A stretch of 64,000 nucleotides of DNA from Pseudanabaena sp. (GCA_044354985.1 JBIKYZ010000002.1:2324-66323), one strand, 5' to 3'. Counted from the first letter of the stretch, positions 3,484 through 10,937 are shown. Numbers and translations: made by a program. Notes: generated from the sequence alone by a model not told the origin.

Positions 3484-6225
3484 TTAGGTAACAAAAATGG
3501 CTTTTAACATGCCTTCTTCCTGATCTAGATGTAGCTGAAATCCTAATTTTCGGCAAATACTTTGCATTGCGTGATTGCTACCCAGAATATAACCAACGAT
3601 CGCACTGAGTTTTTCTTCCTTACCAATCTCTATTAGTCTTCTTAATAACTCTGAGCCTAATCCTTGATGCTGATAGCGATCGCTAACGATTAGAGCAAAT
3701 TCGGCTTCGTTTGTACCATGTAACTTACTCAACCTTGCCACCGCCAGAATCTCGTGCTCTGAAGTTTGCAGATTTTTAGAATCAGCGACTAAGAGCATTT
3801 CGCGATCGTAATCAATGAAGCAAATACGGGTTAAGCGCTCATGGGCAATACGCTGCTTGAGCTTAACCATATGCGCATAACGCAAATAGACACTCTCTTC
3901 TGAAAGCCCTTGATGGAACTGAACCATCAAGGGCTCATCTTCGGGACGAATCGGACGAATCGTGAGGCGATCACCTTTTAGGGATTCCCAAGGCTGAACG
4001 TACTTAGAAGGATATGGACGAATTGCAGGAATTGGTCGCTGTGTAATATCTGCATTGTGCAATACTACTCGCGCATCTAGGGCAATCATGCCATCAGGCG
4101 AAACCATTAGAGGATTGATATCAATTTCGCGAATCTGGGGCTGTTCAACGATTAATTGGCTAAAGTTAACCAATAATTGCTCAAGCTTTGCTAAATCGAT
4201 CGCCTTTCTGCCTCTGACTCCTTGCAAAGCTCGATAGATGCGAGTTTGTTCCATCATTCGTCGCGCAAGAGTTGTATTTAAAGGTGGCAAGGCTAATGCG
4301 CGATCTTGAAATATTTCGACTAACTGACCACCCATGCCAAAGAGCATTACTGCGCCAAACTGAGGATCGAGACTGCTACCTAAGATCAATTCATAGCCAT
4401 CTGTCTTGACCATCGGTTGCACAGTTACACCCAAAAAGGCTTGAGGATTTATAGCTCGAACTTTGGATGCGATCGCCATAAAAGCGCGAGTAACGGCTGC
4501 TGCATCTTCCAGATTAAGACGCACGCCACCTACATCCGTCTTGTGCGTGATAATCTCGGAATGGAGTTTAAGAACGACAGGATAACCAAAGCGATCAGCA
4601 ATTTCTACAGCTTCGAGATCGCTCGTAGCGATTTCGGTCGGTACAGTAGGAATTCCATAGGCAGCAAGTAATTGCTTAGATTCATACTCAGTTAGCAAAC
4701 TGCGATCGCTACTGATTGCTGGTGCTAAAATTTGCTCGGCAAGAAGGCGATCTGGTGCATACTGATCGGAGTCCACTGGCAAGGAAGGAGTTTCATAGAT
4801 CCCCCGCAAATTGTAGGTATACCGCCACATGTAGTTAAACAATCTAACGGCAGTATCGGGATAGGGATAGGTGGGAATATTGGCTTGATTGAGAATTTGC
4901 GTACCTGCGGCAATTTCTGCGCCACCCATCCAACTTGTTAAAACTGGTTTGCCTAATTGACTATAAGCCTTGAGCTTTTCCGCAGTCTGCGTAGGGTTAG
5001 TCATCGCTTGCGGAGTCAAGATTACAAGCAATCCATCACTATTGGGATCATTTACCATAACTTCCAAAGTTTTAGCATAGCGATCGCTACTTGCATCGCC
5101 CAAAATATCAATGGGATTATGATGGCTCCATTGCGAAGGCAAAAATTGATCGAGCTGTTGTAATGTCTCTGGAGCTAGTACAGACAATTCACCACCGTCA
5201 CTGATTAGGGCATCCGTTGCGATTGCGCCCGGTCCTCCAGCATTAGTAACAATCGAGAGGCGGTTTCCCTTAGGGCGTGGTTGTTTGGCGAGAATTTCTG
5301 CCATATCAAAGAGATCGGAGATCGTATGTACGCGCAATACCCCACAACGACGGAATGCTGCATTTAGTACTTCATCACTACCCGTCAAAGCTCCTGTATG
5401 AGAGGCTGCCGCTTTCGCCGCCGCTTCTGTATGTCCCACTTTCAATACAATGATTGGTTTATCCATCGCAACTTCACGAGCCGCTGATAGAAAAGCACGA
5501 GCATCACCAATTGATTCCATATATAAAACTATGCTGTGGGTGTGGGGATCATCTCCGAAATATTCAATCAAATCACCCCAGCCAACATCCAGCATTGAGC
5601 CAATGGAAACGAAGGCACTAAATCCCACATTATCGCCAAGGCTCCAGTCTAAAATCGAAGTACAGAGCGCTCCGCTTTGACTAATGAAAGCAACGTTCCC
5701 CGCACGAGTGATCGCTCCTGCAAAGGTGGCATTTAGTCCCGCCAGTGGATTCATGACTCCAAGACAATTCGGTCCAATAATTCGCATCCCACCCAGTCTT
5801 GCTTCAGCGAGAACTTGCTGTTCTAACGCTGCCCCCGCCTCTCCAATTTCTTTGAACCCCGCTGAGACAATTATTGCGCCTTTTACCCCGACCGCCACAC
5901 ATTCACGAATCACCTGAGGAACTGTCGCCGCAGGTGTTGCAATTACAACTAGATCGACGACTTCGGGAACACTAGCAATATCTGGATAGGACTTAATTCC
6001 CAATACACTATGACGCTGGGGATTGACTGGAAAAACAGTGCCACCAAAGGGACTGCGTATTAAATTCCAAAGCAATGTTCTTCCTACACTTCCTTCTCGT
6101 TCACTTGCTCCAATCACAGCAACAGAGCGAGGATGAAAAATACAGTCAAGGGGATGCCGCTGTCTTTTCCAAATATCATGAGCGGGATCGCCAGCACACA
6201 TTTGATTGTTTAAAACTTTCTCCAT
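3484..6225 (-). CDS. Bifunctional ADP-forming acyl-CoA synthetase-like / GNAT acetyltransferase (Pat-type protein acetyltransferase architecture)
   Basis: N-terminal CoA-binding domain ([17 protein letters not shown]), a succinyl-CoA-ligase-like domain, an ATP-grasp domain ([23 protein letters not shown]) and a C-terminal GNAT motif A ([16 protein letters not shown]). Confidence 0.8.
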
Positions 6226-6428: not shown

Positions 6429-6580
6429 TTATTAACTGGTGTTACGTGGAAGATTGTCAAGCCCTCACCCCTAGCCCCTCTCCCGCAGGAGAGGGGAACA
6501 AGGAAATATGGGTTTTGCTCCCCTTCTCCTGCGGGAGAAGGGGTTGGGGGATGAGGGTTCCACTTAACGTCAGTTATTAA
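6429..6580. mobile_element. MITE-like element made of two inverted copies of a ~38-nt GC-rich unit
   Basis: GCCCTCACCCCTAGCCCCTCTCCCGCAGGAGAGGGG (6461-6496) is repeated in inverted orientation at 6521-6559. Outer imperfect inverted ends are TTATTAACTGGTGTTACGTGGAA and TTCCACTTAACGTCAGTTATTAA. Confidence 0.5.
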
Positions 6581-6603: not shown

Positions 6604-6918
6604 TTAACTTACGATGAGAGCGATAAATATTGCCATTACTGTGAGCAAAACAGCAAATACAAATTGAGATTTAGAGCGAAGTAGCTCTTCAGTAGTCAAA
6701 AGAGTAGGCTCTTCGACATACATCGGGGTCAGAATTGCGTAGTTATTCAGCAATCCCTGATCATCTACGGTATAACCGCTTGAGATGGAAATACTTGGAT
6801 TGGGGGTAGGTTCAAAAGTTGTTTCTGTAACTGCTTCTGGAACTTCTACAGAGGGTAGCTCACTGCTATCACTACGACTATCTGCTACCTTCATTTCTTT
6901 GAGATCGATGGTAAACAT
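6604..6918 (-). CDS. Hypothetical tail-anchored membrane protein
   Basis: 104-aa ORF, acidic and Ser/Thr-rich at the N-terminus, with a single C-terminal TM segment (FVFAVLLTVMAIFIALIV). No recognisable family. Confidence 0.35.
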   Translation of the reverse strand: MFTIDLKEMKVADSRSDSSELPSVEVPEAVTETTFEPTPNPSISISSGYTVDDQGLLNNYAILTPMYVEEPTLLTTEELLRSKSQFVFAVLLTVMAIFIALIVS

Positions 6919-7008: not shown

Positions 7009-7812
7009 TCAAATATCGCTAGTTAAAATAAAGCGCCAATCACTTTCATCCATACCATGACTGACCAAACTAGCGATCGCATTAGGAAATACATTCTGAT
7101 TTGCAAGGGAGATCGCTAAATCATCATCCCTCGGCACACAGAACATATGGGTATATCCAGCGACGGGAACCGAAATCTCAGTAGGCAGGCGATCGCCCCA
7201 CTGTACATGCAGTAATGGCAACATTTCTCCATTACTTTTTAGCTTTAAATCTTTAATACCTTTTAGAGAGAGATAGGAGATGTTACCGCGATATTCAATG
7301 AGTATCGGTTCTAGCGATCGCATTACTTCCGCATCTACACCATAGATCCCCAATATAGACGAGCAGCGAAACCGCACCAGATTAAACTTCTCATAAACGC
7401 GCACAAGACGATTAGGTTTACCATCGCCTGCATTCATCGATATTGTATAGCCGCGATCGCATTCTCCAATACAGGAAGTCAAAGCATGATGCAAAATCCT
7501 CATCGAAAGATGTTGCCTCTGATAGTCAGGGTGGACTTTTAAATCGCAGAGATACCAAGCTAAACGCACTGGTTGATCCTGACGGTAAGGCACTTGTCTT
7601 AATATTCCTGCGCCAACAGCCGCCACGCGATCGCCATCCAAAGCGGCAAAGTAACTTACAGCACCAAGTCGATCAAAAAAGGCAAAGTAATTATCACCAT
7701 GATCGAGTTGAAAGAAATCATTACCCAATGGATAGAAAGCGGTTTTCTCAATCGCCTCAATTCCTGTCTGAAATAGTGAACGTTCTGCAAACTCAATACG
7801 ATGAAACCTCAT
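7009..7812 (-). CDS. GNAT-like acyltransferase-fold protein (N-terminal half), unknown C-terminal half
   Basis: GNAT motif-A-like YLCDLKVHPDYQRQHLSMRILHHAL. ATGA overlap with the upstream gene. Confidence 0.45.
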   Translation of the reverse strand: MRFHRIEFAERSLFQTGIEAIEKTAFYPLGNDFFQLDHGDNYFAFFDRLGAVSYFAALDGDRVAAVGAGILRQVPYRQDQPVRLAWYLCDLKVHPDYQRQHLSMRILHHALTSCIGECDRGYTISMNAGDGKPNRLVRVYEKFNLVRFRCSSILGIYGVDAEVMRSLEPILIEYRGNISYLSLKGIKDLKLKSNGEMLPLLHVQWGDRLPTEISVPVAGYTHMFCVPRDDDLAISLANQNVFPNAIASLVSHGMDESDWRFILTSDI

Positions 7813-8933
7813 GACCGAAACCCTACTACAACTTCACGATAGAAAAAAGAGCGATCGCTAGCAAGCAATTCCTGACTAAGTGAACGATCAATCGTAATAT
7901 GCTCTGCCATGTTTTCCGCTAAATTATGGTCGCCATTGAGCCTCCGCCCAATGATCGCACCACCCGAATTCAGGCAATAGACTATCTCTTTCAACATTTG
8001 GTGAATGCTGCTCAGAGGCATCCAGTCTGAGATATTAGAAAACTGAATCAAGTCGAATTTCTCTGAAGTGGCGAGTTGCTTAAGGCAATCTACGAAAGCG
8101 CCCTGATGTAGCTGTAATCGCTCTGTCCCTAATGTGCGAATATCATTTTGGGCTGAGGCTTGGAGATAAAGAGGAACTCCCTCTCCTTTGAGATCGGACG
8201 TATAGCGATCGCCCCAGACTTGAGTCAAGAAATAATTCTCATTGGGGATAAAGCGCTGTAAAGCTTGGGCAAATACATCGGCAAAATGCTCGCCAAAGCT
8301 GCGCTCCATCGAGTAGTTAACGGCAGCTTCGCTAAAGGCATCTATGAGGTGATCGCGCTCAAATACCTGCTCAAAAATATCGCGCCATTGTGGTTGCTGA
8401 ATAGCAACTAACTGTTCTTGCAAAGGTTCGATCCCAATCTGGGCAAACTTTTCTGCAAGTTGACGAAATAGTTGTTCAAAGCGTCCGACTTGATTCACTC
8501 CAAACCCTATCTGTTCCAATCTTGCATCCCAAAAAGCTTTTGTACTCGCAGGTAAATTTGGGCTTAAGCTGGCGTAGATACTCAGCCGATTGCGAGCGCT
8601 AGCAGATTTATCTGCACCAATCAACCGCAATTGTTCATCTAAAGATAAATGCAGTAAGGCTTGGCGGCGTAGTTCGACGAGATGTAGTTGGGCGGGATTA
8701 ATATCTACCGCTTCGATTTTGGCGATCGCAGGATGTGATAGCAAACTTAAGGCTGTACAACCACCTGAAGCCACCAAAAGCACCCTAAGCGGTTGCTGTC
8801 GCTTGGCTACCTCTTGGATTACACGCAATTCAACCCGAGGATCTTCACGCACTTGCGAGAAGGCTATTTCTGAGGTGATTGTCGAACTGGAGTCACAAAT
8901 CACGATATAAACTCCAGAAATAGTGAGCACCAA
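7809..8933 (-). CDS. DUF3419 / BtaA-like SAM-binding protein
   Basis: FSQVREDPRVE..., Rossmann-type VLLVASGGCTALSLL, and VDINPAQLHLVELRRQAL resemble the BtaA (SAM:diacylglycerol 3-amino-3-carboxypropyl transferase) family. The start is uncertain: TTG 8933, GTG 8930 or GTG 8903. Confidence 0.6.
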   Translation of the reverse strand: MVLTISGVYIVICDSSSTITSEIAFSQVREDPRVELRVIQEVAKRQQPLRVLLVASGGCTALSLLSHPAIAKIEAVDINPAQLHLVELRRQALLHLSLDEQLRLIGADKSASARNRLSIYASLSPNLPASTKAFWDARLEQIGFGVNQVGRFEQLFRQLAEKFAQIGIEPLQEQLVAIQQPQWRDIFEQVFERDHLIDAFSEAAVNYSMERSFGEHFADVFAQALQRFIPNENYFLTQVWGDRYTSDLKGEGVPLYLQASAQNDIRTLGTERLQLHQGAFVDCLKQLATSEKFDLIQFSNISDWMPLSSIHQMLKEIVYCLNSGGAIIGRRLNGDHNLAENMAEHITIDRSLSQELLASDRSFFYREVVVGFRS

Positions 8934-9645
8934 GCATTAAACCTTGCAATACTTGCCGACGAGTATGCGGATCTTCCCAACCTGCTTCTGCTAATAACAG
9001 CAAGTCTCTCGCATGTTCAGTATCCAGCTTTTCATGGAATGCATAGTGTGACTGACTACCCACTGCCGTCCAGCTACGTTGATATAAAGTTCTGGCGATC
9101 GCCGCACTGATGCCGACATAGAGATGTTCGATCATGCCGAGCATCGCGGCTCCCGATTCTCCTGACTGCATTAGGCAATAGGTCAAAATCGATTGATTAA
9201 ACGCCAATACTGGCATCGTACAAGGCGAATTTAATTCACCTTCAGTTGCCCCCAAAGCGCGAAGGTATTGCTGAAAAGTGTATTTGTGCGATCTCCAGCG
9301 ATCGCCGTGACCATGCTCTTCGGTAATATTTGCTAGTAATGGCAAGCGTGTTTCTAGAGTTTCCGTTCGGGCTAACACCGCAGCTAATGGCTGAGAAAAA
9401 GACTCTACGGCAAAACGAAATGGAAGTTGGCTACGCCTAAAAGAATTGCGATCCGTTAGGGGATCTGCCATCCAGAGCCTATAGGGATGGTTATTAAAGT
9501 CATAAACCTTTGCAATCCACAATACTGTGGATTGCAGAGATGGCATCTCGCTCAAATCTGCAAAGTCTAAGGTCGGATATTGCTGGACTCTCGGATTAGC
9601 GATCGGTTTTGCGATTAAAGTTTGCATATTCATTTCCTGCGTCAA
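8893..9645 (-). CDS. Heme-oxygenase-like di-iron (iron-containing redox enzyme) family protein
   Basis: All-helical, ~250 aa, with carboxylate/His motifs ITEEHGHGDRW, MIEHLYVG and FHEKLDTEHARD. 4-nt overlap with the upstream desaturase gene. Confidence 0.55.
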   Translation of the reverse strand: MTQEMNMQTLIAKPIANPRVQQYPTLDFADLSEMPSLQSTVLWIAKVYDFNNHPYRLWMADPLTDRNSFRRSQLPFRFAVESFSQPLAAVLARTETLETRLPLLANITEEHGHGDRWRSHKYTFQQYLRALGATEGELNSPCTMPVLAFNQSILTYCLMQSGESGAAMLGMIEHLYVGISAAIARTLYQRSWTAVGSQSHYAFHEKLDTEHARDLLLLAEAGWEDPHTRRQVLQGLMLGAHYFWSLYRDL

Positions 9646-10652
9646 TTAATCACAACAGTACCGACGGGCTGACGCTTCAAGCTGGCGGCGATAAAGTCTT
9701 GTACAAAAGAGAAATAAGAAGGAATGTATGGTGCTCCTTGTTGAATGAGATCTGACTTTAGCTCTTGATGAAGACGCGGTAGATGATACCAAGGTACGGC
9801 GGGGTAAAGATGATGCTCTAAATGATAGTTTTCATTACACATAAAAAATCTCACCAAAGGAATCGTCAAAATTGTGCGGGTTCCACGAACTAAATCTGCC
9901 TCATGTTCGAGCAAGGTGTGCTGACTCATCCCGCGAATATTGACCATTGTATTAATCCACAGCATCGGAATCAACCAACCATGAATTAGGAATGCTGTAG
10001 GAATAGGCGATCGCAGCACCCCTATCACCAATAAGCCCAGCAAAGCTACTTCGATCGCAATCCATACCCGTTCTGATTTATTTCCCTGCCAAAAGCCAAG
10101 GATCGGAATCGCAATAATGTAAACAGGATAACCAATGATCAATCTACCCCAATGCATCAAGAATGTTAGCCAGTTCCATTTGGTGTAGTTCTTGTAATGG
10201 TCGGGATCTCCTTCTATACCTAAGTGTTTGTGATGCTTGAGATGTAACACTTTGTATGCTGAGAAGTTTTGCCCAACGGGTAATGCGCAAAGAATACTCA
10301 GCCATCGATTCCAATGCGAGTTACGACTTAGTAATCCATGTACTCCTTCGTGGGTGAACAGACTAATGCCATGTAGAGAAGCTGCTGCTAATAAATACAG
10401 AGGTAAACAGAGAATGTATACCCAAGGTGTCGCGATCGCCTGTACTAAGGCATACAATGCAAGCGCCGCTACTAAGTACAAAACAATGAAGATCGGCAAG
10501 CGTTGAGGATGCTGATCAAGACTATGTAATTGCTTGAGTAGTTCGGCATCTAGCTTTGGCTTTTCTATCTCTTCACGAGTCTTATCCTGCTCAGGGCTAA
10601 GATTTTCCTTGTCTGAGAATTGTTGTGTTTTCATAGACCTAAGGATTTCCAC
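9642..10652 (-). CDS. Membrane fatty-acid-desaturase-family di-iron enzyme
   Basis: Three His boxes (HEGVHG, HLKHHKH, HLEHHLYP) set among TM segments. Hydrophilic 60-aa N-terminal extension. Confidence 0.8.
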   Translation of the reverse strand: MEILRSMKTQQFSDKENLSPEQDKTREEIEKPKLDAELLKQLHSLDQHPQRLPIFIVLYLVAALALYALVQAIATPWVYILCLPLYLLAAASLHGISLFTHEGVHGLLSRNSHWNRWLSILCALPVGQNFSAYKVLHLKHHKHLGIEGDPDHYKNYTKWNWLTFLMHWGRLIIGYPVYIIAIPILGFWQGNKSERVWIAIEVALLGLLVIGVLRSPIPTAFLIHGWLIPMLWINTMVNIRGMSQHTLLEHEADLVRGTRTILTIPLVRFFMCNENYHLEHHLYPAVPWYHLPRLHQELKSDLIQQGAPYIPSYFSFVQDFIAASLKRQPVGTVVIN

Positions 10653-10770
10653 AAAAAAGGATTAAAATGAGTTGCAATTATGAAATCTTATCTTTCATTC
10701 CTATCTTAAATTGTGCGCGATCTAAGTTTACATAGTGGTGACTGTCATCACAGGCGATCGATGATATAAA

Positions 10771-10860
10771 TGCGCTTTGCGCTTAAACCCAAACCAAAAA
10801 AACATAAAAGCGTTGCAAAGCAACGCTTTTATGTTTTTTTGGTTTGAGCGGCAATTGCTG
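10771..10860. repeat. Long hairpin repeat with the GCGCTTTGCGCT(C/T)AAACCCAAACC head
   Basis: CGCTTAAACCCAAACCAAAAAAACATAAAAGCGTTGC pairs with GCAACGCTTTTATGTTTTTTTGGTTTGAGCG. The head motif recurs at 16283, 43106 and 63959. Confidence 0.5.
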
Positions 10861-10893
10861 TAAATGCGCGATAACCTCCTCCATAAGCTAACC

Positions 10894-10932
10894 AAAAGGC
10901 AAGGGCAATTCATGAATTGCCCTTGCCTTTTT
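10894..10932 (-). terminator. Rho-independent terminator of gap
   Basis: AAAAGGCAAGGGCAATTC-ATG-AATTGCCCTTGCCTTTTT lies 5 nt after the gap stop codon. Confidence 0.75.
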
Positions 10933-10937
10933 AGGAT

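Follow-up and report, generated by a model that had tools for sequence, protein, structure and literature searches.

The stretch analysed here (the window) comprises 64,000 nt from Pseudanabaena sp., a Pseudanabaena-like cyanobacterium (GCA_044354985.1 JBIKYZ010000002.1:2324-66323), and the subject is an operon of four consecutive open reading frames (ORFs) on its minus strand at 7009-10652. The ORF list placed the genes exactly where an earlier note on the same DNA had located them. The four family assignments proposed there held in Pfam (FA_desaturase, Haem_oxygenas_2, DUF3419 and Acetyltransf_1), and all the motifs quoted for the first three proteins were present. The genes are lettered A to D in the order of transcription, and X denotes a fifth gene found at some related loci.

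Gene A, 9642..10652, minus strand, 336 aa: membrane fatty-acid-desaturase/hydroxylase family, di-iron, three His boxes
Gene B, 8893..9645, minus strand, 250 aa: soluble heme-oxygenase-like di-metal oxidase (HDO) of the CADD-like type
Gene C, 7809..8933, minus strand, 374 aa: S-adenosylmethionine (SAM)-dependent transferase of the DUF3419/BtaA family
Gene D, 7009..7812, minus strand, 267 aa: two-domain protein of the GNAT superfamily

Each of the four proteins has hundreds of homologues at E < 1e-70, so the ORFs are not chance occurrences; the closest homologues are found in Pseudanabaena and Tumidithrix. Of the three overlaps between gene ends claimed earlier, two stood. The ATGA overlap of C and D at 7809-7812 is solid, because the N-terminus of D (MRFHRI) agrees with all homologues. 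Genes B and C overlap by 11 nt, counted from a C start at GTG 8903, which the N-termini of the homologues support (M-IC-..SEIAFSQ) and which likely is the true start, giving a protein of 364 aa. The 4-nt overlap of A and B, in contrast, requires a doubtful TTG start of B. A 14-nt spacer is more likely, since the B homologues begin at ATG 9627 (MQTLI...), with AGGAA before the ATG, and the true B is then likely 244 aa long. In other cyanobacteria the spacing between A and B is 20-220 nt. The start of A may instead be ATG 10634.

Protein A belongs to the FA_desaturase superfamily (PF00487; 3.4e-39, 135.6 bits vs the 29.7-bit cut-off). It is polytopic, with hydrophobic blocks at residues 49-99 and 169-223, and its His boxes are HEGVHG at 101, HLKHHKH at 137 and HLEHHLYP at 277. 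At the level of curated families A scores under every cut-off: the best NCBIfam match was GntB (NF041365; 1.3e-19), at 70.7 bits against a cut-off of 380 bits, and the scores with the CrtR, CrtW and DesA models were lower still. An A orthologue from the third, metagenomic architecture described below (type 3; locus L127) reached 82.3 bits (4e-23) on the GntB model, also below the cut-off. GntB is a transmembrane enzyme that hydroxylates free L-arginine (bioRxiv 10.1101/2023.03.21.533663), and a homoserine ether, dihydrorhizobitoxine, is the substrate of the desaturase RtxC (PMC6304460). When A was compared by tblastn with 72,556 plasmids, whose desaturases stood in for RtxC, the matches were partial, lying in the region of the third His box and covering 26-33% of A, with a single longer match at 69% coverage and 24% identity. 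An RtxC-like identity of A found no clear support in these partial matches to plasmid desaturases, symbiotic plasmids carrying rtxC included. A 2025 review labels GntB as alpha-ketoglutarate-dependent (PMC12371840), whereas the originating group describes it as transmembrane (bioRxiv 10.1101/2023.03.21.533663). The review appears to be in error on the class of this enzyme; membrane desaturase-like proteins align over nearly the whole of the NCBIfam GntB model.

Protein B is a member of the Haem_oxygenas_2 family (PF14518; 8.8e-17, 61.9 bits vs the 28.9-bit cut-off), with the motifs TEEHGHG at 108, MIEHLY at 171 and HEKLDTEHARD at 204. Like C and D, it has no membrane segments and is predicted to be soluble. 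A profile of 30 homologues searched against the PDB gave only one convincing match, CADD/4-aminobenzoate synthase (2.9e-12), with BesC at 0.16; from the set of UndA, BesC, SznF and CADD in which B had been placed, CADD was thus retained as the closest and the others were not. Residues E109, H120, E173, H204, D208 and H211 align with the six metal ligands of CADD, and Tyr55 with its Tyr27. All of these are invariant in the 30 homologues and were kept also in the divergent types, and the invariance of all six ligands supports the view that B is catalytically competent. Many members of the wider superfamily have the HP(Y/F) motif at the Tyr55 helix. Where CADD has Lys152, the amine donor of that enzyme, B has an invariant Ile. 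On the CADD model TIGR04305 B scored 26.3 bits and type-3 B 54 bits, higher than the window protein, both below the 200-bit cut-off, which leaves B outside the CADD subfamily.

Protein C matched DUF3419 (PF11899) over profile positions 8-382 of 385 (7.9e-41, 140.9 bits), and carries the motifs VLLVASGGCTALSLL at 51 and VDINPAQ at 76. Its AlphaFold model (mean confidence, pLDDT, 91; first 14 residues disordered) shows a class-I SAM-binding Rossmann core into which a large helical segment is inserted. The Foldseek matches were exclusively of the class-I SAM methyltransferase fold, and no solved structure was close (TM-score, TM, <= 0.35). Single-sequence searches of the PDB with C, and likewise with A, D and X, found no match. 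BtaA proper is accompanied by btaB in the same operon. No btaB-type N-methyltransferase companion of C was found in the 80 genome loci, the 80 metagenome loci or the nearest genes of the window. Also a search of plasmids for an authentic btaA-btaB operon found only other orphan DUF3419 clades. One of these, on Rhizobium plasmid pMK-2 (L085), occurs with 3-ketoacyl-carrier-protein synthase III, an oxidoreductase, a metallo-beta-lactamase-type hydrolase and a CoF-synthetase-like ligase; another, on a Roseinatronobacter plasmid (L086), with a UbiA prenyltransferase, a phosphoenolpyruvate-utilising enzyme and an AMP-binding enzyme.

Protein D matched Acetyltransf_1 barely above the cut-off (3.1e-4, 21.4 bits vs 20.7 bits), and similarly weak GNAT matches were found in 22 of 36 members of its family. 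The model is confident (pLDDT 93.8) and has the GNAT fold, with a complete GNAT domain at the N-terminus and a second alpha/beta domain after it. In Foldseek it gave 278 matches in the PDB at E <= 0.001, and the best 50 listed were all acyltransferases of the GNAT superfamily with a probability of 1.0. Eis-like proteins were at the top, and the matches, at TM ~0.45, also included AAC(2')-Ia, other extended or tandem GNATs, a histidine N-acyltransferase and, in the 40th place, NMT. The pyrophosphate-binding loop after beta4 reads YQRQHLS (consensus YQxQxLS) and not Q/RxxGxG/A, the Gln being kept and both Gly replaced. Conserved residues of beta4 and beta5 include Y87, D90, K92 and Y122. The family has invariant motifs also outside the GNAT core, and its proteins end in ...TSDI/TSEI. 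An exhaustive profile search gave 886 D-family clusters at 50% identity, nearly all of about 265 aa; the N-terminal extensions vary, and the end of the domain is almost always the last residue of the protein. The active site of Eis and NMT contains the C-terminal carboxylate of the protein itself.

From its modelled fold D is a probable acyl-CoA N-acyltransferase. The confidence of that fold, and a C-terminus that keeps its position and sequence even in the distant D' subtype described below, speak for its catalytic competence. D is not of the OlsB type with which it was to be compared: Acetyltransf_5 (PF13444), the OlsB-type GNAT model, matched neither the window D at E <= 0.1 nor any of the 36 family members at E <= 0.01, and D instead resembles the extended GNATs Eis and NMT, with an invariant C-terminus. 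A LuxI-like identity was rejected, there being no such Pfam match. Two natural fusions join D to an oxidase. P0416 is a clean B-D fusion protein, and in P0367 the C-terminal half of a B-like HDO is joined to D. In a third protein, P0503 (497 aa, from an AT-rich organism), the D-family domain follows a hydrophobic N-terminal region of about 240 residues that has no Pfam match, and this may be a membrane-anchored version of D.

The occurrence of the genes elsewhere was surveyed first from D, using one genome per species. A relative of D was present in 166 genomes; 80 loci were fetched, and 71 of them had enough flanking DNA. B, C and D were adjacent in 68 of these 71 loci, distributed over about eight phyla, in the following orders:

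A-B-C-D, 24 loci: cyanobacteria
B-C-D, 7 loci: three of them cut just upstream of B
C-B-D, 36 loci: Poribacteria, Planctomycetota, Myxococcota, Burkholderiales, Bacteriovoracaceae, Lysobacterales
D-C-B, 1 locus: Chlamydiae

The pairwise distance matrices of B, C and D were strongly correlated (r = 0.90-0.97, Mantel p = 0.001; r >= 0.94 within each type). Also the divergent B and C of the type-2 loci had kept their metal-ligand and SAM motifs. In comparisons between types D is the best conserved of the three, with 45% identity against about 30% for B and C. Clustering of all flanking ORFs at the D-anchored loci revealed no other broadly conserved neighbour, the candidates being only Poribacteria-specific synteny and antisense shadow ORFs. 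These data exclude a chance adjacency of the genes, and B, C and D form one functional unit.

The three exceptions among the 71 loci were one with C and D only (L068), one with D only (L083) and a deletion variant. The last, in a metagenome-assembled genome (MAG) of Pseudanabaena sp. M085S1SP2A07QC (L007:8028-9026), is syntenic with window positions 8934-10937 and lies between the same GAPDH (glyceraldehyde-3-phosphate dehydrogenase) gene and D. Some 1 kb of unrelated DNA with an unrelated 147-aa ORF stands there in place of A, B and the first ~39 codons of C, while a truncated C and an intact D remain. The operon is accordingly accessory and dispensable, and decaying in at least one lineage.

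Some further features of single loci were recorded. On a contig labelled 'Sericytochromatia', A-B-C-D has a phage-type integrase gene on one side and a DDE transposase fragment on the other (L002-L004:5523-6488, L002:10850-11125), which suggests horizontal mobility of the quartet. Two MAGs carry two copies of the module each (L040 and L044 in the Synechococcales MAG GFS_9157, L045 and L050 in Poribacteria PCPOR4), and the A gene of L040 aligns as two overlapping pieces, suggesting a frameshift or an assembly error. In Betaproteobacteria bacterium UKL13-2 a phosphatidylserine decarboxylase (Psd) gene is found immediately upstream of C-B-D on the same strand (L063:6265-7416), and in a Myxococcales MAG the first ORF called upstream of C is an MMPL gene.

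A second scan, of metagenomes and anchored on A, yielded 80 loci with A sequences of the same subfamily (56-97% identity). A, B, C and D occurred together in 41 of them, in six different orders: ABCD, BAXCD, AXCDB, ACDB, BACD, and C-D-B divergent from A-X. Most of the other loci were truncated forms of these six. Twelve loci had A only, 11 of them with less than 1 kb of sequence downstream of A, and L102 alone had long flanks with no partner gene. The A subfamily is thus almost never found without B, C or D and is dedicated to the module, and since the association survives shuffling of the gene order, the evidence for a functional coupling is strong. The D protein of the metagenomic architecture (D') has the N-terminal GNAT domain in common with D (hhalign probability 98%, E = 2.7e-13) and still ends in ...SSEI/TSEI.

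The earlier note had offered the absence of the quartet from other genomes as grounds for abandoning its proposal, and both scans found it widely. Its view of the four genes as one unit stood as regards their co-inheritance and had to be altered as regards their rank: the conserved core is B+C+D, and A is an add-on in cyanobacteria and in the third, metagenomic architecture.

In 37 of the A-anchored loci gene X directly follows A (e.g. L127:5938-6843 and L141:5792-6778). X is polytopic and matched Pfam PAP2_3 (6e-15 and 6e-18). A profile of X searched against the PDB matched only AUR1, the catalytic subunit of inositol-phosphorylceramide synthase (E = 0.002), over one stretch of 68 residues, and this alignment spans the catalytic motifs FPSLH and HY.VDL.

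The reading preferred here, to which a probability of roughly 0.5 is given, sees in the four genes the cyanobacterial form of a modular pathway that is widespread and serves to build or remodel a membrane lipid's polar head group. A link to lipids is supported by the polytopic A, the AUR1-like X and the full-length membership of C in the family of BtaA, and in a minor way by the Psd and MMPL genes upstream of C at two loci. A lipid head group is favoured over a soluble metabolite because two membrane enzymes of lipid type accompany a transferase of the BtaA family. A lipid product was proposed also in the earlier note, and this part has been strengthened by the dedication of A to the module and by the AUR1-like PAP2_3 partner; the betaine- or amino-type lipid named there is still conjectural.

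The gene set, its conservation and co-evolution, the fusions and the fold and family assignments were observed directly, and from them, by way of the chemistry of the families, we infer every substrate and reaction of the following scheme. C would use SAM to alkylate a lipid alcohol, e.g. diacylglycerol or a ceramide-like lipid, and the group moved would most plausibly be 3-amino-3-carboxypropyl (acp), as with BtaA, giving a homoserine ether. D would then N-acylate the new alpha-amino group, possibly with its buried C-terminal carboxylate as the catalytic base, and so fill the slot that the N-methyltransferase BtaB has in betaine-lipid synthesis. B, probably in a complex with D as the fusions suggest, would carry out an O2-dependent tailoring of the head group by hydroxylation, desaturation or oxidative C-C cleavage. 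A would desaturate or hydroxylate the hydrophobic part or the carbon adjoining the head group, and X, where present, would supply or consume the lipid alcohol or a phospholipid.

A more specific form of this scheme is put forward only tentatively and is doubtful as a whole. According to it B, C and D, with A and elsewhere the AUR1-like phosphotransferase, make a new class of bacterial lipid in which an oxidised, N-acylated homoserine-ether (acp) head group is carried on diacylglycerol or ceramide, in cyanobacteria, sponge-symbiotic Poribacteria, Planctomycetota, Myxococcota and environmental Chlamydiae. The CADD-like di-metal oxidase, complexed with the NMT-like GNAT, would then catalyse a reaction new to its kind.

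Several points weigh against the lipid reading and its proposed product. In most phyla (the type-2 loci) the soluble B, C and D have no membrane partner, and X is absent from the window and from all the D-anchored genome loci (types 1 and 2). A membrane location is no proof of a lipid substrate, because GntB, the best curated match of A, acts on free L-arginine. Membership in DUF3419 does not alone imply BtaA chemistry, since other clades of the family occupy unrelated clusters. The use of coenzyme A (CoA) by D is not assured because its pyrophosphate-binding loop is degenerate, although backbone-mediated binding is still possible. The Psd and MMPL genes, which might be taken as hints of lipid metabolism in the flanks, are single cases. 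Finally, the characterised heme-oxygenase-like oxidases act mostly on amino acids or free fatty acids (PMC13185094).

This last point is shared by the alternative that survives best, although it is unlikely: that the module makes a soluble specialised metabolite derived from an amino acid. C would then methylate or acp-alkylate an amino acid or a small alcohol, D would N-acetylate the product for biosynthesis or self-protection, B would oxidise it by N-oxygenation, desaturation or C-C cleavage as BesC, SznF and MboA do, and A would act like the Arg hydroxylase GntB or like RtxC, possibly yielding an antimetabolite of the enol-ether or vinylglycine type. Such a product would agree with the solubility of B, C and D, with the largely amino-acid or peptide substrates of the characterised HDOs (PMC13185094), with GntB, an enzyme of free arginine, as the best NCBIfam match of A (bioRxiv 10.1101/2023.03.21.533663), and with RtxC, which desaturates an amino-acid ether of the kind that acp transfer would give (PMC6304460). 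The GntB score of A is, however, far under the cut-off (70.7 vs 380), and the plasmid desaturases align over at most a third of A, apart from the one match at 24% identity. Moreover, the survey of flanking ORFs found the loci to be without a transporter, nonribosomal peptide or polyketide synthase, ligase or pyridoxal-phosphate enzyme, and at 37 loci an AUR1-like lipid phosphotransferase has been recruited. The mangotoxin mbo cluster was compared and rejected as a different system, consisting of an HDO, a reductase, two ATP-grasp ligases and a deiminase.

A route to an aromatic amine resembling that of CADD is improbable. In it B, possibly as a self-sacrificial Fe/Mn oxygenase, would excise an aromatic amine or a related small molecule from its own Tyr or from a bound substrate, and C and D would alkylate and N-acylate the excised product, so that an aromatic compound with a cofactor-like or signalling role results. 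Among solved structures CADD is much the nearest to B, the equivalent of its Tyr27 is invariant in all types, type-3 B reaches 54 bits on the CADD model, and the B-D fusions would suit a direct hand-over of the product. Even so, both B scores (26 bits, and 54 in type 3) are far from the 200 bits of TIGR04305, an invariant Ile stands in the place of Lys152, the motif around the Tyr is a general one in the superfamily, and A and the PAP2_3 partner are left unexplained. Very improbable indeed is that D is a target or scaffold whose invariant ...TSDI tail, or another invariant residue, is modified or matured by C and B: the C-terminus of D is fixed in sequence and position across the family and in the divergent D', D is better conserved between types (45%) than B or C (~30%), B-D fusions exist and the CoA-binding loop is degenerate, but the fold of D is a complete and confident GNAT, Y87, D90, K92 and Y122 are typical of active acyltransferases, a buried catalytic carboxylate like that of Eis and NMT is the simpler account of the tail, and no precedent is known that ties DUF3419 to protein substrates.

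The lipid head-group pathway preferred here can also be set beside the known systems. The nearest is BtaA/BtaB, which makes the betaine lipid DGTS (diacylglyceryl-trimethylhomoserine) in Rhodobacter sphaeroides, with BTA1 as its counterpart in algae. C matches the same Pfam family over its full length and has a SAM-binding Rossmann core, and in both cases an adjoining gene encodes a second enzyme that could act on the amine of the transferred amino acid. In contrast to that system, C has no btaB beside it in about 150 loci, its fixed partners being a CADD-like oxidase and a GNAT. It scores only 141 bits on the family model. With other DUF3419 clades in unrelated clusters its BtaA chemistry is not assured, and DGTS synthesis needs no oxygenase, which is obligatory here.

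CADD itself (CT610), the 4-aminobenzoate synthase of Chlamydia and an Fe/Mn oxygenase, is similar to B in all six metal-ligand positions and in the Tyr27 equivalent; apart from the subfamily score and the Ile at the Lys152 position, it differs in acting alone, whereas B is always accompanied by C and D. Like GNATs of the Eis/NMT type, D has a complete GNAT domain with a second alpha/beta domain, and its own C-terminus is fixed in length and sequence, but the identity is about 10%, TM is ~0.45, D has 267 aa against about 400, and its CoA loop is degenerate. X is like the PAP2 phosphotransferases of the AUR1 and sphingomyelin-synthase type in being polytopic, in its PAP2_3 domain and in the FPSLH and HY.VDL motifs, although the similarity is weak (E = 0.002, 68 residues) and X is confined to loci other than the window and types 1 and 2. 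A has the same membrane architecture with three His boxes as UndB, GntB and RtxC, and B has the HDO fold of UndA, but B is CADD-like and not UndA-like, and none of these systems includes a DUF3419 protein or a D-type GNAT.

In the literature searched, this gene combination is nowhere described. That no characterised pathway matches, as had been stated earlier, is borne out by the lack of a btaB, by the score of B under the CADD cut-off and by the difference of D from the OlsB type. The module consists of known superfamilies in a new combination, and is uncharacterised and widespread. If the lipid reading is true, the module holds the genes for a membrane-lipid head group not described before, in about eight bacterial phyla that include sponge symbionts and ecologically important cyanobacteria. 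That would also assign a first function to a large orphan clade of heme-oxygenase-like oxidases, to a second branch of the BtaA family and to the 886-cluster GNAT family of D. Should the product be soluble, the fixed trio of SAM transferase, CADD-like oxidase and GNAT with its natural fusions would still be a well-defined system open to experiment. New HDO chemistry could emerge from it, and it is relevant to the question whether enzymes of the CADD type are catalytic when they have partners. The natural deletion variant and the three gene orders are ready material for comparison. The operon is a good orphan-pathway lead and not a solved function.

The genes surrounding the operon are of housekeeping type (GAPDH, AccD, DnaK/GrpE, an ECF sigma factor), and the base composition gave no signal of an island around it. 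An anti-phage defence role was rejected, as PADLOC gave no matches. Two features lie upstream of A:

10653..10794, minus strand: 5' leader and putative promoter region, downstream of two terminator-like hairpins
10795..10931, minus strand: two hairpins between the operon and the upstream GAPDH gene, from a terminator scan and direct reading of the sequence

The hairpins occupy 10894-10931 and 10795-10841, the latter being a perfect palindrome with a 20-bp stem followed by a T-run. Both gave sub-threshold matches to plant and animal microRNA (miRNA) models, as long hairpins do. A promoter scan of the leader identified no promoter. No Rfam family matched the leader above chance, and a riboswitch or other regulatory RNA was rejected, the only matches being sub-threshold ones of hairpins to miRNA models. 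NtcA, Pho-box, Fur and HLR1 motifs were found upstream of A neither in the window nor in 24 orthologous upstream regions, so control by phosphate starvation has no support.

Downstream of D, the minus-strand ORF at 6604-6918 encodes 104 aa, of which the C-terminal 55 residues cover the whole model of the photosystem II assembly protein Psb34 (35.9 bits vs the 45-bit cut-off) after an N-terminal extension of about 50 residues. This Psb34-like gene probably has its own promoter, since an extended -10-like TGGTATAAT is present in the 90-nt gap after D. Downstream of it a hairpin of about 100 nt (6460-6559) matched miRNA precursor models on both strands below the gathering scores, and is probably a terminator or a repeat element. 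Further on, the minus-strand ORF at 3484-6225 encodes a 913-aa ADP-forming acyl-CoA synthetase fused to a C-terminal GNAT domain; its synthetase part comprises CoA-binding, succinyl-CoA-ligase-like and ATP-grasp domains, in the layout of the Pat-type protein lysine acetyltransferases.

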